A stretch of DNA of 64,000 bases from Gemmatimonadales bacterium (GTDB lineage: Bacteria > Gemmatimonadota > Gemmatimonadetes > Gemmatimonadales > GWC2-71-9), in the NCBI GenBank assembly GCA_035699205.1, contig DASSBA010000081.1, positions 2,273 to 66,272 of the forward strand, in the 5' to 3' direction. Positions 8,367 through 28,769 of the stretch are shown here, in pieces (positions within the stretch are counted from its first letter, which is position 1; every line of letters starts with the position of its first letter). The notes below the pieces were generated by a model. It worked only from the letters and a program-made list of their open reading frames with translations, was not told the DNA's origin and made no database searches. Both the position numbers and the translations under genes were made by a program.

Positions 8367-11240
8367 ATGGCAGGTCCCACACTCCGTCTGTTCACCCTTG
8401 GCGGCCTCACCCTCGAGCGGGATGGGCAACCGATCGGCGGCATCGGCAACCGAAAGGTGCCGCTGATCCTGCTGGCGCTCCTTGCGGGGCACGGCGCGCA
8501 GGGGATCAGCCGGGACAAGCTGGTGGCCTACCTCTGGCCCGATAGCGACGAGGCGAGGGCCCGCAACAGCCTCAAGCAGGTGCTGTTCGGCCTGCGCCGG
8601 GAGCTGGGCGATTCGCTGCTGATGTCGGCCGGTCCCACCCTCCGCCTCGACCCATCCGCAATCGGATCCGATCTCGCCGACTTCGACGCCGCTCTCATGG
8701 CCGAGGATTTGGCCGCCGCGGCTGAGCTGTACCGCGGTCCCTTTCTGGACGGATTCTTCCTGCCGGGTCGTCTCGAGCTGGAGCGCTGGATCGAGACCGA
8801 TCGTCAGCGGCTCCATCGTGTACACGTGGAGAACCTCGTCCGCCTGGCTCGGCGGGCCGACGCCGAGCACGACCTGGTCCTGGCGGTCCGCTGGTGGCGG
8901 CAGGCCTCCGCCGCCGACCCGTTCAGCGCCGATGCCGCCCTCGGCGCCATGCGTGCGCTGGCCGCGACCGGCGACCGCGCCGGGGCGCTGGAGCACGGCC
9001 GGTCCTACGAGGCCGCCCTCGCCGCCGAGCTGGGGCTCCCGGCCGAGCCCGCGGTCCGAGAGTTCGCCCGATCCCTCCGGATCCCCGACCCGGCGCCGCC
9101 GGTCGCCATCGGGGCACCGCCGGCCGCCGATGCCTTCCACCCGCAGGCGCTAGCCGCGGCAATGGCCGTCTCGACCCCCCTGGCAGTGCCGGCCGGCCGG
9201 GCGCGACCGGTGGCGGCGCGCTGGACCGGCTACCTCCTCCCGCTGATCCTGGTGCTGGCCATCGCCGGCGCCGTGCTGCTGCTGCGGAGCAGCGCGCCGG
9301 ACGCCGTCGCCCCGGGCGCGCCCGCGACGCTCACGGTCCTGCCGTTCGAAGCGGTGGGTGACGCGAGCGGCGATCTCGGACGCGGCCTCGATGCGCTCCT
9401 CTCCTCCGGACTCGACGGCGTGGCGGATATTCGAGCGGTGCCGACCGTCCCGGCGGGTGGCAGGGGCGGGACGCCGGGTGGATTGACCGGCTCGGCGGCC
9501 TCGGAGACGGCCCGGCGCTCCGGCGCCCGGCTCTACGTGGTAGGCCGACTGGTGGCGGATCGGGACAGTCTGCGCGCCACCGCCTCGCTCCACGACCGCG
9601 CCAACGCCGACCGCGAGGTGAGCCGCGCCCAGGCGACGGTCTCACGGGACGAGCTGTTCACCATGGCGGACGAGCTCGTGCGCGGGCTGGTGGCCGACCG
9701 GGTCGGCGGGCCCGGCGAGCGGCTGGCCAGGGCCGCCGCGGTGAGCACCCGGTCGCTGCCGGCGCTCAAGGCCTACCTGGACGGTGAGCAGCGGCTCCGG
9801 CACGACGAGTACGTCGCCGCCGTCGATGCCTTCAACCGCGCCGTCAGGGCCGACAGCGCATTCGGGCTGGCCTATTACCGGCTCAGCGTGGCCGCGGACC
9901 GGGCGGGACGCGACGAGACGTCCCTCTGGGCCGCCCGCCTGGCCAGCCGGTTCAGCGCCGGCCTGTCCGAGCACGACCAGCGCCTGGTGCTGGCCTATCT
10001 CACCGTCCGGAACGGGCGGCTGGACGAGGGCGAGCGGATCTATCGCGGGATCGTCGCGGACTACCCGCAGGACGTCGAGGCCTGGCTCCAGTTGGGCGAT
10101 CTGCTGCTGCACGGCAATCCGTTGCGCGGACGCTCCGCGCTCGAGGCACGCGAGGCCTTCGAACGGGTGCTGGCGCTCGCGCCGGACCAGGGCGACGCGC
10201 TCGTGCCGCTCGCGCGCATCGCCTCGCTCGAAGGGAAGCGCACCGAGGCGGACTCGCTGCTGCGCCGCGCGGAAGCCACCGTGCCCGCGGCCGCCCTCGA
10301 CCTCCGGGCCATCCGTACCTTCGCGCTGAACGACCGTCCCGGCCACGAGCGGGCGACGCGCGATCTCCTGGCCGACCGGTCGATTCTGCCCCGCCGGCTC
10401 GCGTTCGACGTGGCGGTGAAACTCGGCGATCTGGCCGGCTCGGCGCGCTTCGCGGGACTCCTCGTCCGCGCGTCCGCCACCTGCGACGTGCACGCGATGG
10501 GGCGGCGGATGCTGGCGCAGGTCGCGATCGCGCACGGACGGCTCGGTGTGGCGGACGGCGAGCTCGCGCGCGCGGCGCCGTGCGATCCGGGGGCAGCCCT
10601 GGAACACCGCGCGCTTCTGGCCGTGCAGCCGTTCGCGAGCCCGGACACCTCCGACCTCGAGGAGCTCGCGCGCGACCTCGGCGTCGCGGCCGACTCGGTG
10701 CTCGGGCACCCGGCGCGCGAGTACTACGCCGGTCTCGTCGCGATCGGCCTCGGCGATAGCCTGACCGCCGCCGCCGACGCGCGCGCACTCCTTGCCGCAG
10801 GGGATTCGACGGCCACCGGCGACCTGTCCCGCACGTTCGGCCGGAGTCTGCGCGCGCGGGTGCTGTGGCACGCCGGTCGCCCGGCCGAGGCACTGGCGGA
10901 GCTCGAGGCGGCCGGATGGGAGCGCACGGCGCGACTCTCGGTGGCGGAGGCCTCGGACCGCTATCTCCGGGCGGAGCTGCTCCACCGTCTGGGCAGGGAC
11001 GAGGAGGCGATCGGGTGGTATCGGTCCATCGCTCAGCGGGCGTCCTACGAGCTGGTGTATGTGGCGCCGGCCGAGCGCCGGCTCGCGATGATCTACGACG
11101 CCACCGGGGATGAGGCGGCCGCGCGTGAGCACTACCGGCGGTTCATCGACCTGTGGCGGGAGGCGGATCCGGAGCTGCAGCCGGCGGTGGGGGCGGCGGA
11201 GCGGCGGCTGGGGGAGCTGGAGGGGGCGACGGCGGGATGA
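8367..11240 (+). CDS. Membrane-anchored SARP/BTAD-family transcriptional regulator with periplasmic TolB-like and TPR modules
   Basis: N-terminus LRLFTLGGLTLERDG...LVAYLWPDSDEARARNSLKQVLFGLRREL (OmpR-type wHTH plus BTAD). One TM segment (WTGYLLPLILVLAIAGAVLLL). Then a TLTVLPFEAVGD... module and TPR-like repeats. Confidence 0.8.
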   Translation: MAGPTLRLFTLGGLTLERDGQPIGGIGNRKVPLILLALLAGHGAQGISRDKLVAYLWPDSDEARARNSLKQVLFGLRRELGDSLLMSAGPTLRLDPSAIGSDLADFDAALMAEDLAAAAELYRGPFLDGFFLPGRLELERWIETDRQRLHRVHVENLVRLARRADAEHDLVLAVRWWRQASAADPFSADAALGAMRALAATGDRAGALEHGRSYEAALAAELGLPAEPAVREFARSLRIPDPAPPVAIGAPPAADAFHPQALAAAMAVSTPLAVPAGRARPVAARWTGYLLPLILVLAIAGAVLLLRSSAPDAVAPGAPATLTVLPFEAVGDASGDLGRGLDALLSSGLDGVADIRAVPTVPAGGRGGTPGGLTGSAASETARRSGARLYVVGRLVADRDSLRATASLHDRANADREVSRAQATVSRDELFTMADELVRGLVADRVGGPGERLARAAAVSTRSLPALKAYLDGEQRLRHDEYVAAVDAFNRAVRADSAFGLAYYRLSVAADRAGRDETSLWAARLASRFSAGLSEHDQRLVLAYLTVRNGRLDEGERIYRGIVADYPQDVEAWLQLGDLLLHGNPLRGRSALEAREAFERVLALAPDQGDALVPLARIASLEGKRTEADSLLRRAEATVPAAALDLRAIRTFALNDRPGHERATRDLLADRSILPRRLAFDVAVKLGDLAGSARFAGLLVRASATCDVHAMGRRMLAQVAIAHGRLGVADGELARAAPCDPGAALEHRALLAVQPFASPDTSDLEELARDLGVAADSVLGHPAREYYAGLVAIGLGDSLTAAADARALLAAGDSTATGDLSRTFGRSLRARVLWHAGRPAEALAELEAAGWERTARLSVAEASDRYLRAELLHRLGRDEEAIGWYRSIAQRASYELVYVAPAERRLAMIYDATGDEAAAREHYRRFIDLWREADPELQPAVGAAERRLGELEGATAG

Positions 11241-11361: not shown

Positions 11362-12735
11362 TCAGGGCTTCACATTCGTCTTCACTTCCGCGGGAGCATT
11401 GAAGGTCTCGACGTCGCGCCCCACGACGCCGGTGATGCCGGATGCATCGGTGCTGCTCACCGTGATGATCAAACCGCCGGTCTTCGTCACCGACAAGTGG
11501 AACGTCGCATAGCCGGGTTGCAGCGGGCCGCCGGCGGTGGCCGAGGCCGACTTCGTGATTGCCGAAACGTCGTCCGGCCCGGTGTTGTCGCACTCTTTGT
11601 TCCCCGCCAGCGCGGTGTTCTGCCCGTTGTTGTTCGCCCCATGCATGTACACGCAGACGCCATTCACTCCGAGGCCATCGTCGGTCTTGGCTCGGACGAT
11701 TACTTCGTAGGGCATCTTGCGAACGGACATGGTGGCCGGTGGTGCCTTCACATAGCTGAACGTGATGCTCGGCACGGGCTTGTTGGCGAACTCGCTCCTG
11801 AGGCCACCGGCCGAGCCGCCGATGGTCCTGGTGCCGGCGAACAGCGGCTGCGGGGTGAGGAATTTGACCAGCCGCTGCACGAGGACCCGCGCGCCCCAGG
11901 ACTGCGGGATCGAGCTGATCGAGGCATCGCAGACGTAGTCCGCGTCGTGATAGGCCAGCACGCCGAAATCGGACTCGCTGACCATGCTGGTCGGCTCGCT
12001 GCTCGCGAGGCACAGTGCGACGGTGGCCCCGTCGCCGCCGAACGGCACGGAGGGCCGGATTGCCTCCCACTGGTACTCGCTGGTCGAATAGCCACCGATA
12101 TCCGCGCCCGCCAGGGGAATCCCATAGATCAGCGCGCGCTCGGAGAGAACCTGGCTCCAGGGGAGCGCAGTGCCTGGCGCAACGAGATCGTTGGGATCCT
12201 GCGGAGGAGCCACTCCCGATAGCCGCTGGGTTACGCCGACCGTTGTGCGCGACACCACCGGTGTGTTGCCACTGGCCGGGCCGCGAACCTCGTAGGCACC
12301 CGGCACCGCCGGATCAAGCGACGGAGTGAAATCGAGCGCGTCGAAGTTGGACGGGAAGTCGCTCGAGGTGCCTGCCTTGTACATGCACTTGATCAGCTCC
12401 TTCGTCAGCTCGGAGCCGGTGCTGGCGGCCGTGTTCCCGCCCTTGACTGCAGCGGCGATCAGCTCCATGACGTTGAACCCGCTGGCCTGTGCGGCGGCAG
12501 TGTATGGGCTCGCGGTCATCTCGTCGACGAAGCCCCTCGCCTGCTGAGTCGTCGCCGGGTCGGTGAAATAGCCGCTGACGAGCGATGGGAACGCACTGCT
12601 GTTGCAGGCGAGGGTGGGGGCCGGGCGGAACTCCGGCTGTCCGGGAGCAACCGGACCCGAGTCATTCCGGTCCGCGCACGCGATCACCAGCATCCCGACC
12701 GCGATGGGGAGCATGCCAAGAACACGGCGAGCCAT
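11362..12735 (-). CDS. Secreted lipoprotein of unknown function (C-terminal Ig-like beta domain likely)
   Basis: MARRVLGMLPIAVGMLVIAC has a lipobox. AAGGAG lies 9 nt upstream of ATG 12735. No recognisable catalytic motifs. Confidence 0.7.
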   Translation of the reverse strand: MARRVLGMLPIAVGMLVIACADRNDSGPVAPGQPEFRPAPTLACNSSAFPSLVSGYFTDPATTQQARGFVDEMTASPYTAAAQASGFNVMELIAAAVKGGNTAASTGSELTKELIKCMYKAGTSSDFPSNFDALDFTPSLDPAVPGAYEVRGPASGNTPVVSRTTVGVTQRLSGVAPPQDPNDLVAPGTALPWSQVLSERALIYGIPLAGADIGGYSTSEYQWEAIRPSVPFGGDGATVALCLASSEPTSMVSESDFGVLAYHDADYVCDASISSIPQSWGARVLVQRLVKFLTPQPLFAGTRTIGGSAGGLRSEFANKPVPSITFSYVKAPPATMSVRKMPYEVIVRAKTDDGLGVNGVCVYMHGANNNGQNTALAGNKECDNTGPDDVSAITKSASATAGGPLQPGYATFHLSVTKTGGLIITVSSTDASGITGVVGRDVETFNAPAEVKTNVKP

Positions 12736-12807
12736 GGTATGACACTCCTTGATGGTCCTCGGCAAGGAGGACTCCCGAAGGAAACCTGTGGTATGAGAGA
12801 GCAATCA

Positions 12808-12979: not shown

Positions 12980-15610
<2,631 letters not shown>

Positions 15611-15684: not shown

Positions 15685-16515
15685 TCAGCCGACCATCACC
15701 GCCGCCAGCGCGTCCCGCATTGCGGCCGCCGACTGCCACCGGTCCTCGGGTGCCTTGGCCAGCGCGCGGCTGATGCCCGCCGCCAGTTCGGCCGGGATGC
15801 CGGGCTGGAGGGTCCGCAGGTCGGGCGCCGGCTGGTTGAGATGCATCTGCAGCACCACCGCCTCGTTCCGGTGCACGAACGGCGGCTGGCCGGCCAGGCA
15901 CTCGAACAGCACGCAGGCGAGCGAGTAGATGTCGCTCCGGAGATCGATCTCCTTGAGCGCCGTGATCTGCTCGGGGCTCATGTAGGTCGACGTGCCGACG
16001 GCGATTCCCGAGCGCGTCAGCCGGTCGCTGCCGGAGGCCCACACCGCGCGGGCAATCCCGAAGTCGAGCAGCACCGCGCCGCCCGGAGAGACCACCACGT
16101 TCTCGGGCTTCACGTCCCGGTGGATGATCCCGTGTCCGTGCGCGTGCTCCAGCGCGTCGAGCAGATGGTCCGCCAGGCGGAGCGTATCCCCGACGGAGAG
16201 CCGCCCCCGCTGCGACATGAACTCGCGCAGGGTGGCACCCTCGACGAACGTCATGACGTAATAGACCAGCCAGTCACGCTCACCCGAATCCAGCAGATGG
16301 GCGATGTGCGGATGGTCCAGCTGCGATGCCAGCTTGATCTCGCGCAGGAACCGGTCGGCCGCGACACTGACCAGCAGCTCCGGATGCAGGATCTTGAGCG
16401 CGACCGGCTCCCCTCCCGGCTGGCGGGCCAGGAAGATGCGGGCGTTTCCGCCCTTGCCGATCTCGCGCTCGACCTCGTACTGCCCCTGGAACGCCTGGCG
16501 GACCAGTGCCAGCAT
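15685..16515 (-). CDS. Ser/Thr protein kinase, catalytic domain only (about 276 aa)
   Basis: Motifs IGKGGNARIF, VALKIL, HRDVKPENVVV, DFGIA and MSPEQ. ATG 16515 chosen; the longer track ORF (to 17016) would overlap the upstream gene and hairpin E3. Confidence 0.8.
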   Translation of the reverse strand: MLALVRQAFQGQYEVEREIGKGGNARIFLARQPGGEPVALKILHPELLVSVAADRFLREIKLASQLDHPHIAHLLDSGERDWLVYYVMTFVEGATLREFMSQRGRLSVGDTLRLADHLLDALEHAHGHGIIHRDVKPENVVVSPGGAVLLDFGIARAVWASGSDRLTRSGIAVGTSTYMSPEQITALKEIDLRSDIYSLACVLFECLAGQPPFVHRNEAVVLQMHLNQPAPDLRTLQPGIPAELAAGISRALAKAPEDRWQSAAAMRDALAAVMVG

Positions 16516-16587
16516 GTCGCGGCGAATGAGCCGGTCCTTGTGGGGGACTCCCGAATGGTTGCAGTGCGGGCGGCTTCGCGCAAGATC

Positions 16588-16674
16588 GAAAGGCGGAAAG
16601 GCGGAAAGGCGGAAAGGGACAAACCCTTCCCTGCGTGTTTCCTTTCTGCCTTTCCGCCTTTCCGCCTTTCCCCC
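16588..16674. repeat. Tandem-unit hairpin element E3 (8-nt unit GGCGGAAA / TTTCCGCC)
   Basis: Arms 16588-16617 and 16641-16670 are complementary at 29/30 positions, each arm about 3.5 tandem units. Sits directly after the stop of the M50-HlyD gene. Confidence 0.85.
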
Positions 16675-18725
16675 TACAGCAGCAGATCCGTCCGCACCCG
16701 CTTCCGGATCCCCCACCAGATGGATCCCCACACGTTCGATTCCCGGATGGTGACGCTCGCCTCCCCAGTCATCCCCGGCCGCCACCGCGCCGGGCCGCCC
16801 ATCCCGATCCGCGCCTCCACCGTCCCCGAGCCGGCCGACGAGAGCTGCGCCACCCCCGTGACCCGCGCGTCCATCGTCCCGCCGTCCGCATGGAACACCA
16901 GCCGCGCCCGCTGTCCGGCGCGCACCCGCGTGGCCCCCGCGCCGGTGAGCGCGATCCGGACCTCCAGCGAATCCGGTTGTCCCAGCTCCATCAGCCCCTG
17001 GCCAAGGCTTACCCACTGGCCCGTGAGCTCCTCCGGCCGCCGGGTCACCACCACCCCGGCGGTCAGCGCCCGGACGGTCAGCGCCTGCTGCTCCACGGTC
17101 ATCCCCTCGAGCCGGGCGGCGTCGGTGGCGCGCTCGGCGGCCAGTCGGGCGACCTCGGACGTCCGCCCGGCGGCGCGCGCCTGCGCCTCCCGGGCCACCA
17201 GCGAATCCACCCGCCGCCCCGCGGCCAGGGCCGCGCGCTCCAGGTCCAGGTCACGCACCTCGACCAGCGGCATGCCCGACTCCACCCGGGTGCCCTCGCG
17301 TACGTACACCCGGGAGACCAGTCCGCTGTCGGGGGCGGTGAGCGGCAACGACAGCGCGGGCGCGACGGCGAACTGCCCGGTCACCGTGATCGGCCGCGGC
17401 ACGAGCGCGCCGAGCACGAGCAGCATCGCCGCCCCCGCGAGCAGCCGGTCGCGGAAGCGGCCGGTGTCGATCCTCGCCCGGAGCTCGCGCCAGCCGGCCG
17501 CGACCGTCTGGGCCGCGCTCCGGACCGCCTGCCGGGTCATCAGCCAGACGGCGATGGCGAAGAGCACGCCGCCGGCGAGGCCGAGCGCGCCGTCGAGCCA
17601 GCCGTACACGGTGCCGGCCACGACCAGCATGATCGAAGTGATATAAACCGCCGCCAGCACGGCGTAGACGATGAAGATCCGCTGTTCCCGCTCGTCGGCC
17701 GGCGGGGCGGGAACCTCGAGTCGGAATACCCGCGTCTTCACCAGCCAGCCGAGGTGCGCGAAGGCACGCTGCCGGAGGTTCGGCACCTCGAGGTAGTCGC
17801 TCAGCGCGAAGTAGCCGTCGAGCGGGATCAGCGGGTTGGCGTTCATGACGACGGTGGTGATCCCGCCGAAGAGCACGGCGGAGAGCGCGATGTGCGAGAC
17901 CAGCGTGTCCGGCTCCGCCGCCCACCAGACGATTGCCGCGAGGCTGGCCGCGACGAGCTGGATCCACGAGCCCGCCGCGGTCACCCAGAGCCGGGCCTTG
18001 AGCTCGGGAAACGTCCACGCATCGTTCACGTTGCAGAAGAATGCCGGCTCGAAGTACAGCAGCATCGCGCCGATCTCGTGCACCTGTCCGCCGAAGTGTT
18101 TGCAGGTATATCCGTGCCCCAGCTCGTGGACCACGATGATGGCCGTGGCCGTGGACCAGAGCACGAACAGCTCCCAGGCGGAGTAGCGGAAGTGATAGAA
18201 GTCGCCGAACGCCGCCATGAGCTCGGGCCATTTGACGGCGACGACGAGCAGGTAGATGGCGAACAGGAACACCGAGGCGACGAGGAAGCCGCGGGTGAAC
18301 ATCCAGCGGATGTAGGGGATGGTGCGGTCCATGAAGTGATCGGGATCGCCGACCGACCAGCGGAGCCGCAGGATATCGCCCTGGAACGGTCCCGTCGCGA
18401 GACGCTGCCGGCGCTGAGCGCGGAGCCGTTCCATCATGAGCACGGAGCGTTCACCCAGCGTGCGCTCGAGCAGCCCCATCGTCTTGAGCTTGTTCGCGAA
18501 CCCCTCGACCGCCGCGGCCGAGACCCGGAGCCCGGCCGCGACCAGCTCCTCGGCGATCTCGGCCGCGCTGCGGGTGCCGTCGAATTGTCGAATGACGTTC
18601 ACTTCCACCGGCCGGAATCGGAAATACTTCCTGGTCGTGGGGTCCTTCAGGATGAAGCTCTGCTCGCCGCGGTAGGTCTGCTCGACGAGCGTCAGGTCGG
18701 CGCGGAGCTTCGGCGCGGTGGTCAC
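16674..18725 (-). CDS. Fusion protein: PqqD/RRE-like N-terminal domain, M50 (site-2 protease) membrane metalloprotease, C-terminal HlyD/MFP-like domain
   Basis: HELGH zinc motif and NANPLIPLDG motif within a multi-TM core. N-terminus FRFRPVEVNVIRQFDGTRSAAEIAEEL...GLLE. C-terminus has lipoyl-like, coiled-coil and barrel MFP pattern. GTG start overlaps the upstream TGA (GTGA). Confidence 0.8.
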   Translation of the reverse strand: MTTAPKLRADLTLVEQTYRGEQSFILKDPTTRKYFRFRPVEVNVIRQFDGTRSAAEIAEELVAAGLRVSAAAVEGFANKLKTMGLLERTLGERSVLMMERLRAQRRQRLATGPFQGDILRLRWSVGDPDHFMDRTIPYIRWMFTRGFLVASVFLFAIYLLVVAVKWPELMAAFGDFYHFRYSAWELFVLWSTATAIIVVHELGHGYTCKHFGGQVHEIGAMLLYFEPAFFCNVNDAWTFPELKARLWVTAAGSWIQLVAASLAAIVWWAAEPDTLVSHIALSAVLFGGITTVVMNANPLIPLDGYFALSDYLEVPNLRQRAFAHLGWLVKTRVFRLEVPAPPADEREQRIFIVYAVLAAVYITSIMLVVAGTVYGWLDGALGLAGGVLFAIAVWLMTRQAVRSAAQTVAAGWRELRARIDTGRFRDRLLAGAAMLLVLGALVPRPITVTGQFAVAPALSLPLTAPDSGLVSRVYVREGTRVESGMPLVEVRDLDLERAALAAGRRVDSLVAREAQARAAGRTSEVARLAAERATDAARLEGMTVEQQALTVRALTAGVVVTRRPEELTGQWVSLGQGLMELGQPDSLEVRIALTGAGATRVRAGQRARLVFHADGGTMDARVTGVAQLSSAGSGTVEARIGMGGPARWRPGMTGEASVTIRESNVWGSIWWGIRKRVRTDLLL

Positions 18726-19699
18726 GGCGTGGCTTTCACCACCTCTTCGCCCGCCGCGATGCCGCTCACCACCTCGACCCGGTCGCCGTCGAGGTCCGCG
18801 CCGAGGACGACGGCGCGCAGCGCGGTGCGGCCGTTCTCCTGCACGAGGGCAAAGCCGTCCCGGGCCACCGCCGCGCGAGGAATCGCCAGCACCCGCCGCC
18901 GCTGCGCGCCAAGCTGGACGGTGACGCTGCTGCCGGGCGTGAGCGACGAGCCGGAAGCGAGCTGCAGCACCAGTTCGCGCGTCCCGCTGGCCGGATCGAG
19001 CACGGGCGAGGCGCGCACCACGCGCGCGCCCGCGCTCGCCCCGCCGGCGGTGAGCACCCGGGCCTCGGCGCCCACGCGAAGGCCGGCCGCCGCGCCCTCG
19101 GGCACGTGGACCGTGGCCAGGACCGGCGCCAGCGCGGTAACGCGGAACAGCGAGTCGCCGGCGTTGACCAGCCGCTGGACCCGGGCCATCCGCGCCGTGA
19201 CCACCCCGGCGAACGGCGCGACGATCCGGGTGAGGTCGTAGTCCCGCTGCGCCTGGCGGAGCGCCAGCTCGGCGTCGCGGTGCTCGAACTCCACCTGCTC
19301 GCTGTCCGCCCGCGTGACCACCCCCGCGGTGGCCAGGGCGCGCTGGCGCTCGACCCGCTGCGACGCGTTGGCCGACCGCTCGCGCGCCTGCGCGAGGGCG
19401 ATCTCCTGATCGGTGCTCTCGAGCCGGGCGAGCGGCTGGCCCGCGGACACCCGGCTGCCCATGTCCACCAGGATGCTCTCGACGATGCCCGACGACCGCG
19501 CCACGACCGCCGCGTCGTGTTCCACGTACAGTTGCGACGGCAGGGTGAGCGGCCGGTCCACCGTGGTGCTCTCGGCGGTCGCCACCGCGCCGGAAGGAGT
19601 GGCTGCGAGGGATGCGGAGGCGGCGGTCTGGACCGGAGGCGCGACCTCCCCGCCGCAGGCCGCCAGGAGGAGCGTCACGGGAACGACGAGGCGGGTCAT
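18722..19699 (-). CDS. HlyD-family periplasmic adaptor (membrane fusion protein) lipoprotein
   Basis: MTRLVVPVTLLLAACGG has a lipobox. MFP pattern (LARLESTDQEIALAQA..., IVAPFAGVVTA). ATGA overlap with the upstream gene. Confidence 0.85.
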   Translation of the reverse strand: MTRLVVPVTLLLAACGGEVAPPVQTAASASLAATPSGAVATAESTTVDRPLTLPSQLYVEHDAAVVARSSGIVESILVDMGSRVSAGQPLARLESTDQEIALAQARERSANASQRVERQRALATAGVVTRADSEQVEFEHRDAELALRQAQRDYDLTRIVAPFAGVVTARMARVQRLVNAGDSLFRVTALAPVLATVHVPEGAAAGLRVGAEARVLTAGGASAGARVVRASPVLDPASGTRELVLQLASGSSLTPGSSVTVQLGAQRRRVLAIPRAAVARDGFALVQENGRTALRAVVLGADLDGDRVEVVSGIAAGEEVVKATP

Positions 19700-21630
19700 G
19701 ACCAGATCCTCCACCAGAGAAGCCGGGCCCAGCGCGATGGCGCCCGGAGGAGCCGGGTGGCCGCCGATGCGGGATCGGTGAGCACGCGGACGTACGCGGC
19801 CATGCTCGGCCTGAGGACTCCGTCCGGGTTGGCGACGACGGCGCGGACCGGATAGCGCACCCCGGCGCCCGCCGTGTCCGCCGCCGCCACCGGCGCGATC
19901 GAACGCACCCGCCCCGTAAAGGTCCGCTGCGGGACCGCGTCGACCCGGAGCCGCACCTCCTGCCCTGGCCGGACTCGGCCGATGTCCTGCTGCGCCACCC
20001 CGAACTCGAGCTCGAGGGAATCGGTGCGGCCGATCGTCAGGAGCAGGTCGCCCTCTTCGAGCGAGCTCCCGACCCGGTCCTCCACGTGCGGCGTGAGGAC
20101 GACGCCGCTGACCGGGGCGCGCAGCGTGGTGAGGTCGACCTCCTCGTCCAGCAGCGCGACCTCGCGCCGGAGCGCGTCGCCGCGGATCCGCTGCAGCCGC
20201 TCCTCCGAGGGATCGCCCCGGCTGGCGGCCAGCGCGGCGAGCCGGTCGGCCGAGGCCGCCTCGGCGGCCGTGGCCTCCCGGTCCGCGCGCAGACTGGTGG
20301 CGCGGAGGTAGGCCACCGGCGTCCCCCGCGACACCAGGCTCCCCTCGCTCACCGGGAGTCGCTCGACCACGCCCGCCACGAGCGCGCGCACCGGGGCGTA
20401 GGCCGTGGCGCGGAAGCTCGCCGCCTGGCCCGGGACGCGGAACGGCCAGCGAACCAGGAGCAGGAGCCCCAGCGCGACCGCGACGGCCGCCGCGTAGATC
20501 TGGATTCGCCGCTTGGGCATTGCACGGAGCGCCTCGCGCCTGGCCGCCAGCGCGCCGAGCGCGTCCACCATCGGCACCTGGTGATACAGCTGCGCGTTCC
20601 GCAGCGCCACCGCGGTCTGGTTGGCCAGGATCGCCGCTACCTCGCGCTGCGTGGGCGTGGCGAAATCCACGGTGGCCGACTCGAACACCAGGACCCCGAG
20701 CACCCCCTCCTCGTCCTTGAGCGGCAGGTACAAGCCGCTCTCCACGCCGTCGGTTTCCAGGTCCTGGCCGAAGATGGTCACGAACATCCGTTCGGCGTCG
20801 GAGCCCGGGTAGACGCGCTCGCTCAGATACAGCGGCTCGCCCCGCCCGGCGGCCCACTCCGCCCGGGCCACCAGGTCCTGCAGCTTGGGATCCTTGGGGT
20901 CGACGGTCTCCTCACCCGCCACGGCCCGAACGTCGCAGCGCCCCTTCTCGTAGAGCGCGACGGCGGCCCGGTCGAACGGGAGCGCGCGGGAGGCGAGGTT
21001 GACGACTGACTGGAGCACGCGGTCCAGGTCGAGCGTCGCCGTGATCTCGCGGCTGATGTCCAGCAGCAGCGCGAGGTCCCCGGCGCGCTTCTCGGCGCCG
21101 TGAAGCTGTGCGTTCCGGAGAGCCAGGGCGCCGGTGGCGGCCAGCCCCTCGAGCAGCTCGCGGTCATGCTCCTCGAACACGCCGGAGCCGGTGAGCTTAT
21201 TGGTGACCTGGATGGCGCCGACCGTGTTGCCGTTGACCACCATGGCCGTGGCCATGACGTTCACCGCGATGGTCTCACTCGGGTGGTCCAGGTTCGCGTC
21301 GAACCGTGGATCGGCCGTTGCCTGGGTGACGATGGTCGTCTTCTGCTGCTGCGCCACGTCGCCCACGAACCCGGTCCCGACCGGCACTTCGGCACCGACC
21401 AGCTGATCCCCGCGTCCGCCGATCGCGATCCGGCACCGCAACACGTCACCGTCGGCGATCCAGATCGAGCCTCCCTCCGCGCCGAGCGCGGCGAGGACGC
21501 GGTGAAACACCTTCGGCAGCAGCTCGTCGAAGTCGAGCGACGCGCCGAACTCCAGGCCGATCGAGTGGAGCAGCCGGAGACGCTCGACTTCTTCGCGCAG
21601 CTCGTCGGTCGAGGTGGTGGGAGCGCTCAT
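19696..21630 (-). CDS. Tandem-GAF cytoplasmic sensor fused via a TM segment to a HlyD/MFP-like periplasmic domain
   Basis: Two GAF-like blocks (each ending ...ALRNAQLH/LY). TM segment IYAAAVAVALGLLLLV. Then an MFP pattern (LRAPVSGVVLT..., RLRVDAVPQRTFTGRV). Confidence 0.75.
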   Translation of the reverse strand: MSAPTTSTDELREEVERLRLLHSIGLEFGASLDFDELLPKVFHRVLAALGAEGGSIWIADGDVLRCRIAIGGRGDQLVGAEVPVGTGFVGDVAQQQKTTIVTQATADPRFDANLDHPSETIAVNVMATAMVVNGNTVGAIQVTNKLTGSGVFEEHDRELLEGLAATGALALRNAQLHGAEKRAGDLALLLDISREITATLDLDRVLQSVVNLASRALPFDRAAVALYEKGRCDVRAVAGEETVDPKDPKLQDLVARAEWAAGRGEPLYLSERVYPGSDAERMFVTIFGQDLETDGVESGLYLPLKDEEGVLGVLVFESATVDFATPTQREVAAILANQTAVALRNAQLYHQVPMVDALGALAARREALRAMPKRRIQIYAAAVAVALGLLLLVRWPFRVPGQAASFRATAYAPVRALVAGVVERLPVSEGSLVSRGTPVAYLRATSLRADREATAAEAASADRLAALAASRGDPSEERLQRIRGDALRREVALLDEEVDLTTLRAPVSGVVLTPHVEDRVGSSLEEGDLLLTIGRTDSLELEFGVAQQDIGRVRPGQEVRLRVDAVPQRTFTGRVRSIAPVAAADTAGAGVRYPVRAVVANPDGVLRPSMAAYVRVLTDPASAATRLLRAPSRWARLLWWRIWS

Positions 21631-21703
21631 GGAGGTGCTTGGTGGCTCGGCGTGAACGAAAGGGCCCCGGCCCCCAGACGAACGGGGAGCCGGAGCCCGG
21701 ATC

Positions 21704-21724
21704 GGCGCCCCGTTCCGGGGCGCC
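21704..21724 (-). terminator. Stem-loop downstream of small ORF A (possible attenuator or processing site)
   Basis: GGCGCCCCG-TTC-CGGGGCGCC, a 9-bp GC stem, 16 nt after the ORF-A stop. No clear U-tract. Confidence 0.4.
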
Positions 21725-21739
21725 GCGAGAAGATCGCGA

Positions 21740-21871
21740 CTAGTTGAGCCGCATCGGCGCGATTTTCTCTTCGAGCTCTTCGACGCCCAGCTCGACGTCC
21801 TTGGACGGAACCGGCTTCTTCGGCTGCTGTTCGGGAGTCTTGGTCCGGGACTGCTCGTCGTGCTTGCTCAT
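21740..21871 (-). CDS. Small ORF A, 43 aa, candidate precursor peptide
   Basis: MSKHDEQSRTKTPEQQPKKPVPSKDVELGVEELEEKIAPMRLN. Shares the ELxVEELExxIAP block with ORFs B and C. Confidence 0.55.
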   Translation of the reverse strand: MSKHDEQSRTKTPEQQPKKPVPSKDVELGVEELEEKIAPMRLN

Positions 21872-21924
21872 GATAGCGCTCGTTTCGTCGGAGGTCGAGG
21901 GGTCAGGGGGCGCCGGATCCTGAT

Positions 21925-22077
21925 CTACTTGTTCCAGAGCTTGCCCGGCGCGATGCGGGCCTCGAGCTCCTCGACCGAGAACTCCACCGCGTCGGCGTCC
22001 TTGCCGGTGGCGTTACGGATGGTGGCCTTCTGCTCGGGGGTCAGCTCGATCCGGAGATGGTCCTTGGCGTTCGACAT
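21925..22077 (-). CDS. Small ORF B, 50 aa, candidate precursor peptide
   Basis: MSNAKDHLRIELTPEQKATIRNATGKDADAVEFSVEELEARIAPGKLWNK. AGGAG lies 6 nt upstream of the ATG. Full-length paralog of ORF C at 31328-31477. Confidence 0.65.
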   Translation of the reverse strand: MSNAKDHLRIELTPEQKATIRNATGKDADAVEFSVEELEARIAPGKLWNK

Positions 22078-22142
22078 GGCGTGCTCCTGGGTGACGAAGG
22101 GCTGGCGGTGTGGCCGACAGGGCCGGCGAACAACTGGAAGCG

Positions 22143-22175
22143 AAGCTAGCTGGCCTCCGTGAAAAGTCCGTGAAT
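22143..22175 (-). promoter_or_regulatory. Heptamer direct-repeat (11-nt period) activator-type promoter of small ORFs B/A
   Basis: Minus strand reads ATTCACG-GACT-TTTCACG-GAGGCCAGC-TAGCTT. The same architecture occurs upstream of ORF C. Confidence 0.6.
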
Positions 22176-22196
22176 GCGTACTTGCCCTTCCGGGAA

Positions 22197-24485
22197 TTGA
22201 CGGTACGTTCTACCTGTCCTCCCCAAGGACCGCCCCTGCACGCCTTCGCCCTCCGCCTGCTCGGAGCACCCGCCCTCGTTGCCCCCGAGGGGGGTCCGGC
22301 CGCGCCCGTCCCAGGCGCCAAGCCTATGGCGCTGCTCGCCTTCATGGCTCTCGAGCCGCGGCCCCACAGCCGCGAGTCGCTGGCCGGCCTGCTGTGGGGG
22401 GAGTCCCCCGAGTCCGAGGCTCGGGCCTCGCTGCGGCAGGCGCTCAAGCAGCTCCGCGAGGTGCTGGGCGACCGGCTTCGCGCCGACCGGACACTGGTCG
22501 AGCTCGCGGCTCCGCTCGCCTGCGACGTCCTCGAGTTCCGCCAGGCGGCGGAAAGCGAGCCGGCCCGGGCGGCCGGCTTCGAAGTCCCGGCCTTCCTGGA
22601 GGGCTTCTCGGTCCGCCACGCGCCGCTGTTCGACGAATGGGTGGCCGCCACCCGGGTCGCACTTCTCCGTCAGTTTCACCAGGTGCTCGGCCGGCTGGCG
22701 CGCGACGCGATGGGCCAGTGGCGCTGGCGTGACGCGGTCGAGCTGGCCGACCGGTGGCTGGCCAACGATCCGGTTTCCGACGAAGCGGCGCAACTCGCGG
22801 TGGAGGCCCGCTATCTCTCGGGCAATCGAGGCGCGGCGCTCGCCCGGTTCGGCGAGTATCGGGCGCTGCTCGCGCGCGAGATGGGCTGCGAGCCGAGCCG
22901 GGCGCTCCAGGCCTTGGTGCGCCGCGTGGAGGCCGACCGGGGCGGAGCCGAACCGCGGCCGATCACCGACGAATGGTACGTGCACGCCCCCGCCTTCGAG
23001 GCGAGCCTGGTGGGGCGCGAGGCGCAGTGGAATTCGCTGACCGGCGCCTGGAAGCGCGCGGCCCGCGGCCACGCCGGCATCGTGCTCGTCGAAGGCGAGT
23101 CTGGCGTGGGCAAGTCGCGGCTGGCGGACGAGTTCCTGCGCTGGGCCGTGGCCGAAGGCGCCACCGTGCTGCGCGGGCGAAGCCACGACGGCAGCCTCGG
23201 CATCCCCTACGAGCCGGTGGTCGAAGTGCTGCGCGGCGCGCTCGACGCGCCTGGCCTGGCCGCGACCTCCGCGGAGTGGCTCGTGGAGGCCGGCCGCCTC
23301 CTGCCGGAGCTTCGGGAGCGCTTCCCCGGCCTTCCCGCCGGAAGCGAGCCGGATGCGTCCGAGGGTTGGCGGCTCTCCGAGGGCGTGGCCCAGGTCCTGG
23401 CCGCCATCGCGGCCGAGCGTCCGCTCGTCGTTCTGATCGACGACCTCCAGTGGTGCGACGAGGATAGCTGCAATCTGCTTCGCTTCCTCAGCCGGCGCCT
23501 CGAGCGGTCACCGGTGCTGTGGCTCGGGCTCCTGACCCTCGGCGAGGTCGAGCGCGACGCGCCGGCCGCCCGGCTCTGCCGGGTGCTCCGCGCCAAGGCG
23601 CATGCGGAGGTCGTGTCCCTCGGCCCGCTGAGCGAGGAGGAGGTGTGGCAGATGGTGCGCGAGATGGGGCACGTCAGTGCGCCCACGGGCGGCCGCCGCT
23701 TCGCCGGCCGCCTTTTCGGCATCACGGCCGGCAATCCGTTCTACATCATCGAGCTGCTGAAGACCATGTTCGCGCAGGGACTGCTCGCGATGGAGCAGAA
23801 CACCGGGGAGTGGACGGTGTCGCCGGAGGTGGTCGGCGCCGGATGCGAGCTGCCGGTCTCCCAGACGGTGCAGGCCGCCATCGCCGAGCGGGTCGAGCGG
23901 CTGCCCGACGAGCTCCGCGACGTGCTGATCACCCTGGCGGTGAGCGGCGTGGGGTGCCGCCCGGACGTGCTGTCCCACGTCCACGGAATCTCGCGCCTGC
24001 ACGCCGCGGCCGACGGGGACGCCCTGGTACACCGGCGTCTGGCGGTCGAGGAGGCGGGCACCTACCGGTGCGCCCATCCGGTCATCGCGCACCTGGTGCG
24101 TGATGGGCTCACCGCCTCCCGCCGGCAGGAGGTGCACCGGAGTCTGGCGCTCGCGCTGGGGCTCGTGCTGCGGCCCGAGGAGGCACCTTCCGCCGCCGGC
24201 GAGTTGGCCCGGCACGCCGACCGGGGCGGCGAGCCCGGCCTGGCATATCGATACGCGCTGCTCGCCGCCGAGGGAGCGGTGTCGCGCTACGCGTACACGG
24301 AAGCGCTGTCCTGGCTCGACCTGGCGGCCACATCCGCGCGCGGCGCCTCCGAGAGCGAGGTCGTGGACCAGAGGACCGCGGACGTACTGGAGAGGGCGGG
24401 GTGGCGCGAGGCGCCGCGCGGGACGCTGGTGCCGGTGACCCGCGAGATCGTCACCGAGGATCTGGATCTGCGCGTCCGCGGATAA
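22197..24485 (+). CDS. SARP/AfsR-like regulator: wHTH-BTAD, P-loop ATPase, C-terminal helical repeats
   Basis: Motifs FALRLLGAPALV and SLAGLLWGESPESEARASLRQALKQLR, with Walker A GESGVGKSRL. Start uncertain: the track start GTG 22110 would put the ORF-B promoter inside the CDS, so TTG 22197 is chosen. Confidence 0.75.
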   Translation: MTVRSTCPPQGPPLHAFALRLLGAPALVAPEGGPAAPVPGAKPMALLAFMALEPRPHSRESLAGLLWGESPESEARASLRQALKQLREVLGDRLRADRTLVELAAPLACDVLEFRQAAESEPARAAGFEVPAFLEGFSVRHAPLFDEWVAATRVALLRQFHQVLGRLARDAMGQWRWRDAVELADRWLANDPVSDEAAQLAVEARYLSGNRGAALARFGEYRALLAREMGCEPSRALQALVRRVEADRGGAEPRPITDEWYVHAPAFEASLVGREAQWNSLTGAWKRAARGHAGIVLVEGESGVGKSRLADEFLRWAVAEGATVLRGRSHDGSLGIPYEPVVEVLRGALDAPGLAATSAEWLVEAGRLLPELRERFPGLPAGSEPDASEGWRLSEGVAQVLAAIAAERPLVVLIDDLQWCDEDSCNLLRFLSRRLERSPVLWLGLLTLGEVERDAPAARLCRVLRAKAHAEVVSLGPLSEEEVWQMVREMGHVSAPTGGRRFAGRLFGITAGNPFYIIELLKTMFAQGLLAMEQNTGEWTVSPEVVGAGCELPVSQTVQAAIAERVERLPDELRDVLITLAVSGVGCRPDVLSHVHGISRLHAAADGDALVHRRLAVEEAGTYRCAHPVIAHLVRDGLTASRRQEVHRSLALALGLVLRPEEAPSAAGELARHADRGGEPGLAYRYALLAAEGAVSRYAYTEALSWLDLAATSARGASESEVVDQRTADVLERAGWREAPRGTLVPVTREIVTEDLDLRVRG

Positions 24486-26936: not shown

Positions 26937-28085
26937 TTACAGTGTCGTCAGCCGTCCCGCCAGCTCCTCGAGCGTGGCCACGCTGGCGGCGGGCACCAGC
27001 TCGTCCACGTGCGGCAGCGCGGCCCGGAGGCCCACGGTGCTCGGCTCGAACCCCGGACGCGCGGCGAGCGGGTCGATCCAGAGCAGCCGGTGGCAGGAGC
27101 GCCGGAGCGTGGCCATCTCGCGCGCGAGGAGCGCCGGATCCCCGCGCTCCCAGCCGTCGGAGACGAGCAACACGACGGCGCTGCTCCGCACGGTGCGCCG
27201 CACCCACCGGCGATTGAGCTCGTGCAGGCTCTCGCCGATCCGCGTGCCGCCGCTCCAGTCTACCACCTTCTCGGCCACCCGCCGGAGCGCGGCTTCGGGG
27301 CTCCGGAGCCGGAGCTGGCGGGTGATCCGCGTGAGCCGCGTCCCGAAGACGAACACCTCGAGGGGTGCGCCGCTCTGCTGGAGCGCATGGGCGAAGCGCA
27401 GCATGAACCGGCTGTAGCGCTCCATGCTGCCGCTGATATCGCAGACCAGCACGATCGGCCGGGGCCGTTCCGTCCGTCGCAGCCAGCGCCAGCCAAGCGC
27501 CTCGCCGCCGGTGCCCATGGCCCGGCGCAGCATCAGCCGGGCGGCGGGCCGGTGGCCGCTGCGTCCGCTCCGGCTTCGCCGGGCCCGGCGCACCGGCAGC
27601 CGCGGCCGGAGCGCCTCGATCATTGCCTGGGCGTCGCGTGCCTCATCGGCGGTGAGGATGCCGAAGTCGGCGGTGCGCAGCTCCGCCAGCGCGCTCGCGG
27701 CCCCCGGCCGCACCGCGGGAAGCATGTGAGCCTGGCCGGCGGCGGCATCCGGCCCCGCGGGATCGGCCGGCCGCTCGCGGCGCGTCTCCTGCCGCATCCG
27801 CGGGAGCCGGTCGCTGACGCCCGACCCGCTTCGCCGCCGCCAGAACAGGTCGAAGGCGGCCTCGTACAGCCGGACGTCCTCCCGCCGACGGACGAAGATG
27901 GCGCGGCCGGCGGCGCGCACGTCGGCGCGCCGCTCGAAGCCGAGCAACGCGAGGGCCTGGAGGAAGGTGGCGGTCTGTCCGCCATCCGCGCCGAGGCCCG
28001 CCCGGCGGAGGAGGCGCCCGAACCGGGCGACGTTGGCGAGGAACACCTGGCCATCGATCGGGTCTAACGGGATCGAATCTTGCAC
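26937..28085 (-). CDS. VWA-domain protein, CoxE-like
   Basis: MIDAS region IVLVCDISGSM plus LLVSDGWERGD. GTG 28085 is preceded by GAGGGGGAAA. Confidence 0.8.
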   Translation of the reverse strand: MQDSIPLDPIDGQVFLANVARFGRLLRRAGLGADGGQTATFLQALALLGFERRADVRAAGRAIFVRRREDVRLYEAAFDLFWRRRSGSGVSDRLPRMRQETRRERPADPAGPDAAAGQAHMLPAVRPGAASALAELRTADFGILTADEARDAQAMIEALRPRLPVRRARRSRSGRSGHRPAARLMLRRAMGTGGEALGWRWLRRTERPRPIVLVCDISGSMERYSRFMLRFAHALQQSGAPLEVFVFGTRLTRITRQLRLRSPEAALRRVAEKVVDWSGGTRIGESLHELNRRWVRRTVRSSAVVLLVSDGWERGDPALLAREMATLRRSCHRLLWIDPLAARPGFEPSTVGLRAALPHVDELVPAASVATLEELAGRLTTL

Positions 28086-28100
28086 GCCAATTTCCCCCTC

Positions 28101-28769
28101 ATGCAGCGCTTCGACTGCTCCGCTATCCTGTTCGATCTCGACGGTGTCCTGGTGGACTCCGCCGCTTTCGTCGAACGGCAGTGGCGCCGCTGGGCCACGG
28201 CCCGCGGGCTCCGGCCGGAGCCGTTCCTGCGGGTCTGCCATGGCCGCCGCGCTCTGGAAACGATCCGGATCGCCGCGCCGGAGCTCGACGCCGAGGCCGA
28301 GGTCAGGGCCTTCCAGCCGGAGGACGCGGAGGACGCCCAGCCGATCGCTCCGCTGCCGGGCGCCGGCCGCCTCCTCTCGGCGCTCCCTCCCGGGAGCTGG
28401 GCCGTGGCGACCTCGGGTCCCCGATCGAGCGCCACCGAGCGGCTCCGCCGGGCTGGACTGCCGGTGCCGGAGGTGCTGGTCTGCGCCGAGGATGTGGCCA
28501 GCGGGAAGCCGAGTCCCGACGCGTACCTGCTTGCGGCTCGGCGGCTCCAGGTCGTGCCGGCCGGTTGCCTGGTCGTGGAGGACGCACCCGCCGGGATCGA
28601 CGCCGCCCGCGCCGCCGAGATGCGCGTCATCGCCCTCACCACAACCTACCCGACCGACCAGCTCCCGGCCGACGCCTGCGCCCAATCGCTCGCCGGCGTC
28701 CACCTTGGCCGCGTGGACCACAATCCCCACGGCCTCCCGCAGTTGGAGATCCTGGTAGTAGAAGCCTGA
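28101..28769 (+). CDS. HAD-superfamily hydrolase
   Basis: LFDLDGVLVDS (DxDG), ...SGKPSPD... and VVEDAPAGI motifs. Confidence 0.8.
   Translation: MQRFDCSAILFDLDGVLVDSAAFVERQWRRWATARGLRPEPFLRVCHGRRALETIRIAAPELDAEAEVRAFQPEDAEDAQPIAPLPGAGRLLSALPPGSWAVATSGPRSSATERLRRAGLPVPEVLVCAEDVASGKPSPDAYLLAARRLQVVPAGCLVVEDAPAGIDAARAAEMRVIALTTTYPTDQLPADACAQSLAGVHLGRVDHNPHGLPQLEILVVEA

Follow-up and report, generated by a model that had tools for sequence, protein, structure and literature searches.

A putative leader-dependent peptide maturation and export locus without a classical pump in a soil Gemmatimonadales bacterium

Adaptors of the membrane fusion protein (MFP) type are encoded three in a row, one of them fused to a membrane-embedded M50 protease, on contig DASSBA010000081.1 of a Gemmatimonadales bacterium (GCA_035699205.1), of which a 64-kb stretch with a G+C content of 72% (positions 2,273 to 66,272; designated the window in the following) was analysed here. 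Directly upstream of this trio lie two genes for very small peptides with a conserved leader and a short, variable tail. We consider it rather probable that the locus encodes a machine for leader-dependent maturation and export of these peptides which operates without a classical pump. The trio had been noticed before on the basis of the DNA letters and ORF translations and was then described as a complete system lacking a transporter and an outer-membrane partner; that description proved incomplete, as the conserved unit also holds one to three leader-bearing precursor genes. The analysis rests on domain scans of about 45 open reading frames (ORFs) across the window, in which small or weak ORFs were covered only in part, and on a scan of one genome per species, which yielded 80 related loci, all from Gemmatimonadales or Gemmatimonadota and with identities of 50-87%. 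All related loci were annotated by phmmer, and for two of them (L001 and L003) gene calls and Pfam domains were obtained in addition. Hundreds of close relatives of the M50-MFP protein are present in soil metagenomes, the named ones belonging to the Gemmatimonadales, and the DNA of the window itself is present in soil metagenome runs.

The three ORFs of the trio are located on the minus strand as the original prediction had it, and the domain strings given there are borne out by Pfam and NCBIfam, by scans for transmembrane (TM) segments and lipoboxes, and by the predicted fold described below. Gene 1 (19696-21630) encodes a protein of 644 residues with two GAF domains followed by HlyD_D23/HlyD_3 (Pfam, NCBIfam) and, according to a hydrophobicity scan, a single TM segment (residues 375-393) between the GAF and MFP parts, a layout with cytoplasmic GAF domains and a periplasmic MFP (HlyD) part. 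Gene 2 (18722-19699) encodes a lipoprotein of 325 residues with an N-terminal lipobox signal (LLAAC), an MFP of the resistance-nodulation-division (RND) adaptor type; it alone among the trio matches nearly the full RND_mfp profile (TIGR01730; 152.5 bits, cutoff 94.9, profile positions 3-306 of 322). The mechanical ORF of gene 2 extends further upstream, and the lipoprotein start MTRLVVPVTLLLAAC at 19699 was preferred as the sensible one. Gene 3 (16674-18725) encodes a protein of 683 residues that matches NF041824 and HlyD_3 and consists of a predicted recognition element for peptides that are made by ribosomes and modified after translation (RiPPs), an M50 core and an MFP domain (RRE-M50-MFP). 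In Pfam, HlyD_D23 and HlyD_3 domains recur across all three proteins. At both junctions the overlaps claimed before can be read directly, each spanning four bases: gene 2 starts with an ATG that runs into the TGA of gene 1 (tcATGAcc), and gene 3 with a GTG that runs into the TGA of gene 2 (ccGTGAcc). Because an [A/G/T]TGA overlap is kept across related loci, in 71 of 82 at the first junction and in 81 of 82 at the second, these overlaps are not a chance feature of a single genome.

The protease carries the first line of evidence for the proposed function. In addition to HlyD_3, Pfam recognizes a weak Peptidase_M50 match in gene 3, and residues 19-407 match NF041824, the family of the daptide biosynthesis intramembrane metalloprotease, with an E value of 2.5e-58; weaker matches were obtained to the epipeptide protease family NF058609 (1.4e-9) and to PqqD-like models. 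Judged by these profile matches, the protein is a relative of the NF041824 family rather than an equivalog. Its catalytic motifs HELGH (residues 200-204) and NPLIPLDG (297-304), corresponding to HExxH and NxxPxxxxDG, are invariant in 51 homologs, and about six hydrophobic segments were located between residues 139 and 442 by a hydrophobicity scan. In an AlphaFold2 (AF2) model of the full protein (pLDDT 77), residues 12-82 form three strands and three helices, the membrane core (128-441) is helical, and the MFP domain (446-661) contains a hairpin of two 26-residue helices. The fold of this MFP domain is nearest to MacA, MexA, ZneB, AcrA and EmrA, with E values of 1e-14 to 1e-10 for MacA/MexA. 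As the MFP domain dominated the fold search with the whole protein, the N-terminal part was modelled separately. Residues 1-105 alone gave a model with a pLDDT of 86.8 and the order strand-strand-strand followed by three helices, whose top matches in the PDB were TbiB1 and a lasso-peptide B1 protein, both leader-bound, followed by CteB. The TM-score against the leader-bound RRE structures 5v1u, 5v1v and 6jx3 reached 0.77, and LynD (rank 35, E 1.3) and SuiB were far weaker (E 0.6-1.3). According to these models, the N-terminus of the protease (residues 5-85 approximately) folds as an RRE. A phmmer search of the RRE-M50 part against PDB sequences gave no match. The full-length family is large, with 12008 representative clusters at E values of 1e-3 or below and 3138 at 1e-30 or below, most of them with 680-820 residues.

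The second line of evidence is provided by the small genes in the 480-nucleotide (nt) gap between gene 1 and a divergently oriented regulator gene. Peptide 1 (21925-22077, minus strand; 50 residues, MSNAKDHLRIELTPEQKATIRNATGKDADAVEFSVEELEARIAPGKLWNK) has the leader MSNAKDHLRIELTPEQKATIRNATGKDADAVEFSVEELEARIAP and the predicted core GKLWNK, and its ATG is preceded by AGGAG at a distance of 6 nt; peptide 2 (21740-21871, minus strand; 43 residues, MSKHDEQSRTKTPEQQPKKPVPSKDVELGVEELEEKIAPMRLN) has the leader MSKHDEQSRTKTPEQQPKKPVPSKDVELGVEELEEKIAP and the predicted core MRLN. VEELEE.IAP is common to both and ends a few residues ahead of the stop codon. In a motif scan, small genes of this kind were found directly upstream of the GAF-MFP gene in 61 of the 63 loci with enough flanking sequence, 14 of which have one such gene, 43 two and 4 three. 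The precursors comprise 43-66 residues: a conserved leader, some 40 residues long and terminated by EELEE(R/K)IAP, and a hypervariable tail of 3-13 residues. Among 124 distinct peptides, E-8, L-7, E-6 and P-1 are invariant, I-3 and A-2 are conserved in 123, and the information content is mostly 2-4.3 bits at leader positions and 0.5-1.9 bits at core positions. The 118 distinct tails are rich in K, P, G and R, contain almost no D or E and no Cys at all. In close relatives, the codon changes within the leader include many synonymous ones, and the core of peptide 1 differs in every relative; in the lineage of peptide 2, 0-3 nonsynonymous changes occur per 39 leader codons, while the cores read MRLN, MKAH, MKFGA, MKQF and others. 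These patterns point to purifying selection on the leader and diversification of the core. A profile built from 20 peptides retrieved at least 4584 clusters at 90% identity, all of about 50 residues, which are named hypothetical or, loosely, 'DUF1192' in their sources. The latter label appears to be a loose annotation: in Pfam and NCBIfam the peptides belong to no curated family and show only weak matches to DUF1192 (0.03-0.07) and Amm_Lyn_leader (0.054). One member of the family (P0155) bears the source label of a Methylomirabilota metagenome-assembled genome (MAG), which reflects either a binning error or an extension of the peptide family beyond the Gemmatimonadota.

The two lines meet in the comparison with daptides, whose leaders carry the motif ELExMEAP with proline at position -1 and are cleaved off by MpaP, a site-2 protease fused to an RRE (10.1101/2023.03.08.531785). 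Like MpaP, the protein described here carries an RRE at its N-terminus and, behind it, an M50 core containing HExxH and NxxPxxxxDG, and the homology extends over residues 19-407. Both systems have multiple small precursor genes per locus, and the leaders end alike in ELE..(I/E)AP with proline at -1 (ELEERIAP here, ELExMEAP in daptides) in the same register. In contrast to daptide loci, the locus lacks the tailoring genes MpaB, MpaC, MpaD and MpaM as well as ABC transporter genes; its cores are only 3-13 residues long and hypervariable, without the invariant C-terminal threonine or a hydrophobic helix; and the protease ends in an MFP domain and is accompanied by two further MFP proteins. Genes of the daptide class were found neither in the locus in the window nor in the annotated relatives, the cores end in many different residues, and daptides are found in Actinomycetota and Bacillota, whereas the host here belongs to the Gemmatimonadales. 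Since the homology of the protease, the RRE fold, the matching leader end and the strict adjacency of the genes all agree, we infer that the small peptides are most likely the substrates of the protease and, by analogy, that the cut would fall after IAP. Maturation of small peptides by M50 proteases has precedents in EpeP and TglG, the former being thought to both cleave and export its product (PMC10885120). EpeP/YydH, TglG and TmoG are also membrane M50 proteases freeing a very small product from a ribosomal precursor; unlike the present locus, the epipeptide and pearlin systems possess radical-SAM or PEARL tailoring enzymes and ABC transporters, and their proteases have no MFP fusion. A leader of the GG type with export by a C39-ABC protein can be set aside, as the leader ends in IAP instead of GG and no ABC or C39 gene is present.

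The trio and its precursors are embedded in a larger conserved unit of the order BTAD-AAA regulator (divergent), one to three small genes, GAF-MFP, MFP, M50-MFP, short kinase, long kinase. The regulator (22110-24485, plus strand) is an AfsR/SARP-like protein of the STAND type with a BTAD (1.2e-11) and an AAA_16 domain (3.8e-30), and a homolog occupies the same divergent position in practically all loci with enough flank. The short kinase (15685-16515, minus strand) is a cytoplasmic Ser/Thr kinase consisting of the kinase domain only (Pkinase, 3.1e-44); in most related loci, the gene of a homolog directly follows the M50-MFP gene on the downstream side. The short kinase is followed, again in most loci, by a receptor-type Ser/Thr kinase (12980-15610, minus strand; Pkinase, 5.6e-56), which has one TM segment (338-356) and whose large extracytoplasmic part contains TPR-like repeats (weak TPR matches). 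Next to the long kinase, a 480-residue protein (11362-12804, minus strand) with a lipoprotein-like N-terminal hydrophobic segment and no Pfam match is encoded, weak homologs of which were seen at the same position in several related loci, and beyond it a second regulator, of the BTAD-TPR type (8367-11240, plus strand); both may belong to an extended regulatory neighbourhood.

The absence of a pump, the central claim of the original prediction, was upheld. Among the scanned ORFs of the window, none had an OEP/TolC, ABC_tran or ACR_tran domain, and in the two Pfam-annotated relatives no gene of an ATP-binding cassette (ABC), RND or major facilitator superfamily (MFS) transporter lies within 10 kb. 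TolC sequences from the proteobacterial loci described below, used as queries against the 80 related loci, gave no match. The flanks of these loci were searched for ABC ATPases by phmmer with a MalK query, and matches were obtained in only 3 of the 80, at a distance of 9-10 kb, on the opposite strand and at the far edges of the flanks; two further weak matches downstream of the operon correspond to UvrA. A search with regular expressions for the Walker A, LSGGQ and Walker B motifs returned nothing, the strict expression also missing real ATPases. An energised transporter serving a tripartite pump or type I secretion was thus not seen in the scanned ORFs of the window, nor, as far as ABC ATPases are concerned, linked to the trio in the flanks. 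The 'ABC genes' mentioned before at 61.8 kb are indeed unrelated by context; they turned out to be two FtsX/MacB-type permeases (61827-62663 and 62615-63853, plus strand) of a separate system with no ATPase inside the window. The permeases follow the gene of a putative outer-membrane protein of the MetA/phenol-degradation family in a region spanning 60914-63853 (plus strand).

The trio itself is kept as a unit in the 80 Gemmatimonadales loci, none of which has a linked ABC pump; neither a pump constantly linked elsewhere nor a dispersed trio, either of which would have spoken against the original prediction, was encountered. This bears on the simplest alternative, according to which the three proteins are ordinary adaptors of tripartite efflux systems whose ABC, RND or MFS pump and TolC are encoded elsewhere, and the upstream small ORFs are unrelated. 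Genuine MFP domains in all three proteins, the score of the lipoprotein above the RND_mfp cutoff and the occasional separation of adaptor genes from pump genes agree with it. Against it speak the lack of a linked pump, not only in the 80 loci but also in the TolC-bearing proteobacterial homologs, the occurrence, in more than 3000 sequence clusters, of an adaptor covalently fused to an RRE-M50 protease, and the near-constant presence of small ORFs with a leader like that of the known substrates of a homologous protease; we regard this alternative as very improbable. With MacAB-TolC and other tripartite efflux or type I systems the trio shares the MFP fold (lipoyl, beta-barrel and alpha-hairpin elements), a lipoprotein adaptor and, in distant homologs, linkage to TolC. 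It differs from them in that no energised inner-membrane transporter is present, three different adaptors replace one homo-hexamer, and one adaptor is fused to a protease and another to GAF sensor domains. Because no inner-membrane component of the trio other than the M50 protein is polytopic, an assembly built around the protease rather than around a pump, as proposed originally, is the natural reading. The substrate peptides were overlooked in that proposal. The three MFPs may plausibly form a hetero-oligomeric assembly.

A related module has been on record since 2015, when Kamneva et al. (2015, PMC4452313) described a conserved set of GAF-HlyD, Peptidase_M50-HlyD, HlyD/biotin-lipoyl and secondary SecA_DEAD proteins without an assigned role in Planctomycetes, Verrucomicrobia, Proteobacteria, Nitrospirae and Chlorobi and suggested the M50 protein as an inner-membrane component or pore. 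The same three protein types are encoded in one operon in both cases, and an ABC transporter is missing from both. In contrast to the 2015 module, no SecA_DEAD protein was found within 10 kb in L001 and L003 or among the scanned ORFs of the window, and the trio is joined here to precursor genes, an AfsR-like regulator and two Ser/Thr kinases. In the portions of PMC4452313 consulted, neither an RRE nor a small-peptide substrate is mentioned, and the Gemmatimonadota are not among the phyla reported. Apart from PMC4452313, no functional description of the module or of 'LEPR-XLL' was found in the literature searched.

By tblastn against plasmids, a homologous module was detected in Proteobacteria. 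In Magnetospirillum pMSR-1 (L085) and Variovorax CP063167.1 (L086) the order is large repeat protein, TolC, RND-type MFP, HlyD, M50-HlyD, and in Pseudosulfitobacter NZ_CP085155.1 (L088/L089) a protein of about 12,900 residues annotated as 'LEPR-XLL domain' precedes HlyD and the site-2 protease; the latter cluster also holds a SapC-family gene and a prepilin peptidase gene. The giant repeat proteins beside these modules are of the LEPR-XLL, tandem-95 and ELWxxDGT types. The proteobacterial RRE-M50-MFP proteins share 26-32% identity with the one described here and likewise match NF041824, and the clusters also have a homologous GAF-MFP protein and a third, RND-type MFP but no ABC pump, which agrees with the idea of adaptors acting without one. 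The GAF-MFP protein of the window aligned with the HlyD protein of Variovorax from the second GAF domain through the TM segment and MFP part (E 7e-9), and with that of Pseudosulfitobacter in the MFP part only (E 4e-18). TolC is linked in the proteobacterial clusters and not here, whereas kinases and a BTAD regulator are missing there, and the candidate substrates comprise thousands of residues instead of about 50. Near their N-termini, the giant proteins of Pseudosulfitobacter and Variovorax carry the motifs ALEPRFLLSADP or ALEARYMFDAAA, that is, ALE(P/A)R followed by a hydrophobic residue; their starts read ...MEALEPRFLLSADP and ...AMALEARYMFDAAA, and the protein with ...MEALEPRFLLSADP matches NF012209. 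The clusters thus have in common with the present locus candidate substrates with an N-terminal LE-x-R-hydrophobic motif, and they look like a dedicated, ABC-less secretion system for N-terminally tagged giant proteins. The resemblance of this motif to the ELEERI of the peptides is suggestive only, as the peptides obtain no score with the LEPR model. Small ORFs with ELE.R.AP were not found in the proteobacterial loci, where the large LEPR-type proteins stand in their place.

Starting from these clusters, one might suppose that the Gemmatimonadales trio, too, serves a type-I-like secretion of large LEPR-type proteins, encoded elsewhere in the genome, and that the peptides are regulators, decoys or chaperone-like competitors for the RRE. 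Apart from the neighbourhood of giant, N-terminally tagged proteins in Pseudosulfitobacter and Variovorax, the evidence is contrary: no large repeat protein lies in any Gemmatimonadales flank, the peptides fail to match the LEPR-8K model, and their genes are nearly always present and strongly transcribed. Hence we attach only a very small probability to this explanation.

Evidence for transcription comes from contigs assembled from four soil or rhizosphere metatranscriptomes, which were placed on positions 20900-22500. Their word depth is 85-1837 over the two peptide genes, with contig X27 reaching a depth of 637 over peptide 2, and drops to 0-7 over the GAF-MFP gene and to about zero on the side of the regulator. 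Contig depth is a rough and poor measure of expression; it does show that the peptide genes are transcribed, and far more strongly than those of the machinery. As the RNA of the peptide genes far exceeds that of the machinery, the stoichiometric co-expression deduced originally from the gene overlaps may hold within the trio but does not extend to the precursors, which are far more abundant and separated from it by a hairpin region. This region (21662-21724, minus strand), situated between the last precursor gene and the start of GAF-MFP, contains two GC-rich RNA hairpins, at which the RNA depth falls from hundreds to 0-9. Between peptide 2 and gene 1, the spacer of 109 nt folds with -61.1 kcal/mol (z -2.6), and its second hairpin is followed by UUUCGUU. 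A long, near-perfect hairpin of different sequence is present at the same place in most of 25 loci folded. The hairpins are candidates for a leaky terminator, an attenuator or a transcript-stabilising element; a consensus terminator scan of the junction returned nothing, and a clean T-run is missing there. The only promoter-like match (21898-21870) was taken as spurious, as its -10 box overlaps the ATG of peptide 2. A further hairpin, a near-perfect palindrome of about 30 bp with (GGAAAGGC)3 repeats, directly follows the stop codon of the M50-MFP gene (16580-16677, minus strand; -64.6 kcal/mol, z -8.2). The repeat unit GGAAAGGC does not occur elsewhere in the window. A similar GGAAGG-type palindrome was seen in the close relative L006 and is absent from most loci, and the element was therefore rejected as a part of the core system; it is likely to be the terminator of the trio transcript in this lineage.

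In the favoured reading of the locus, the RRE at the N-terminus of the M50 protein would bind the leader in the cytoplasm, and the intramembrane zinc protease would cut after Pro(-1), by analogy to MpaP. The short core would then be set free in the inner membrane or beyond it, passing through the protease or next to it, and the three MFP domains (of the protease, the lipoprotein and the GAF-GAF protein) could form a periplasmic conduit or cage handing the peptide to an outer-membrane channel encoded elsewhere. The tandem GAF domains would probably gate the machine from the cytoplasm, and the precursors, set apart by the conserved hairpin, would be supplied in large transcript excess. The regulator, the short kinase and the receptor kinase most likely would form a regulatory or sensing circuit, either for control of the system or for response to its product.

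Several observations weigh against this reading. The score of the protease with NF041824 (198 bits) is below the curated cutoff of 300 bits, the peptides match no curated leader family, the pairing of peptides with the protease is a prediction, and the cut site is placed by analogy. An outer-membrane partner was not found in the window or the flanks, the locus encodes no energy source for export (ATPase), and passage of a peptide across the membrane via an M50 protease would follow no established route. An exported product of 3-4 residues, the length of the shortest cores, would be unusually small, and the conserved leader of 40 residues exceeds the normal need of an RRE, so that its N-terminal part could itself have a function. 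About a quarter of the loci with sufficient flank have a single peptide gene and two have none, for which frameshifts in the MAGs may be the cause. Finally, the RNA contigs stem from mixed soil populations at a likeness of at least 85%, and their depths pool strains over the conserved leader.

Some of these points would be accommodated by a switch based on regulated intramembrane proteolysis, the classical role of M50 or site-2 proteases. Here the small proteins would be cytoplasmic regulators, for example partners of the BTAD-AAA protein or the kinases, that are destroyed by the RRE-M50 protein upon envelope or GAF signals, while the MFPs would act as periplasmic sensors or scaffolds. The conservation of the entire 40-residue N-terminal region beyond what RRE binding demands, the constant linkage of regulator and kinases, and the lack of an export ATPase in the locus are all in favour of such a switch. 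A hypervariable tail right after an invariant cleavage-type motif would, however, be unexpected in a regulator; the peptides lack the TM segment that classical site-2 protease substrates have, and three adaptor-fold MFP domains together with the TolC linkage in Proteobacteria point to a trans-envelope conduit. On balance, we find a proteolytic switch improbable and prefer maturation and export.

What the exported products might do is the weakest step. Because the cores have only 3-13 residues, diversify at the strain level and are linked to a receptor kinase, they would fit pheromone-like signals better than pore-forming bacteriocins, an assignment that we put forward tentatively and below even chances. 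Alternatively, the same machinery could produce antimicrobial or otherwise bioactive RiPPs, with tailoring enzymes encoded elsewhere, and the kinases and the regulator would control production or immunity without sensing a peptide. In the broad sense the locus does qualify as a RiPP locus, as a precursor with a conserved leader and a variable core stands beside an RRE protein; the cores resemble many antimicrobial peptides in being cationic, an arms race would also be consistent with their hypervariability, and kinase and regulator show weak matches to the TOMM-cluster kinase/cyclase family TIGR03903. Set against this, the conserved unit contains no enzyme modifying the core in any of the 80 loci, an immunity gene is not evident, Cys and a conserved Ser/Thr pattern are missing from the cores, and many of these, with 3-5 residues, are too short for membrane-active bacteriocins. 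The sole candidate for a maturase, a radical SAM gene (29846-31204) beside a third precursor gene, encodes an ordinary HemN (TIGR00538 equivalog, 456 bits, cutoff 325). We therefore judge a bioactive RiPP unlikely, although less so than a proteolytic switch. A more far-reaching version of the export reading, in which an RRE-guided protease is itself the translocator of an ATPase-less system and feeds a GAF-gated, hetero-oligomeric MFP tube, the strain-specific pheromones are sensed by the receptor kinase and signalled to the AfsR-like regulator in a type of quorum sensing or kin recognition typical of soil Gemmatimonadota, and the whole represents the small-peptide branch of a LEPR-type giant-protein secretion family, appears to us possible but doubtful.

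RRE-fused M50 leader peptidases and the GAF/M50/HlyD module are each already on record. In the literature searched, we found no record of a link between the two, of a large transcribed precursor family as substrate of the module in Gemmatimonadota, of a module without tailoring, ABC and SecA_DEAD genes, or of an AfsR-like regulator and two Ser/Thr kinases as its fixed companions. To our knowledge, almost no cell-cell signalling and almost no peptide natural products are known for the Gemmatimonadota, although they are abundant soil bacteria. With at least 4584 precursor clusters, as mentioned, the locus type is a source of thousands of candidate secreted peptides, and the precursor transcripts are among the more visible ones of this group in soil and rhizosphere metatranscriptomes. 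The peptides would also provide a concrete substrate for the module described in 2015, and for more than 3000 clusters of RRE-M50-MFP proteins. If the protease indeed doubles as translocator, peptides and perhaps giant proteins would cross the Gram-negative envelope by an ABC-less route, and the design of conserved leader and hypervariable core could serve as a scaffold for peptide display and export.

The third precursor paralog (31328-31477, minus strand; 49 residues, MSDQNHIRIELTEEQKAQVKAATGKDARAIELGVEELEERIAPMTAKPK), detected by motif scan, has a leader ending in ...KDARAIELGVEELEERIAP and the core MTAKPK. It is not linked to the operon but located about 10 kb from it, directly upstream of hemN. 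Its lineage recurs in L005, L006, L009, L015 and L067 with a conserved leader and differing cores. In L005, L006, L009, L010, L015, L045 and L067 it lies upstream of the operon at a distance of a few kb and is followed there by unrelated ORFs without Pfam matches. In the genome studied here, a cluster of the aerobic CO-dehydrogenase/xanthine-dehydrogenase type (minus strand; 26937-29845, 32665-33345 and 34591-37623) is inserted between the regulator and the third precursor. It comprises a molybdopterin large subunit (34591-37053), a 2Fe-2S subunit (37054-37623), CoxG (32665-33345), a MoxR/CoxD-like AAA protein (28805-29845) and a CoxE-type VWA protein (26937-28787).

Elsewhere in the window, an Eco57I-type N6-methylase fusion (49608-52658, minus strand) lies beside a helicase/SNF2-like protein (47375-49777, minus strand), and the pair (47375-52658) is probably a restriction-modification or other defence module. 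Apart from gene 1, GAF was seen in the window only in a large hybrid sensor kinase (43117-46446, plus strand), which also has several PAS domains as well as HisKA, HATPase and receiver domains. An arginine biosynthesis block (566-7560, plus strand) encodes a semialdehyde dehydrogenase, ornithine carbamoyltransferase, acetylglutamate kinase, an M20 deacylase and argininosuccinate lyase; in relatives such as L003, the same arginine genes flank the locus on its kinase side.

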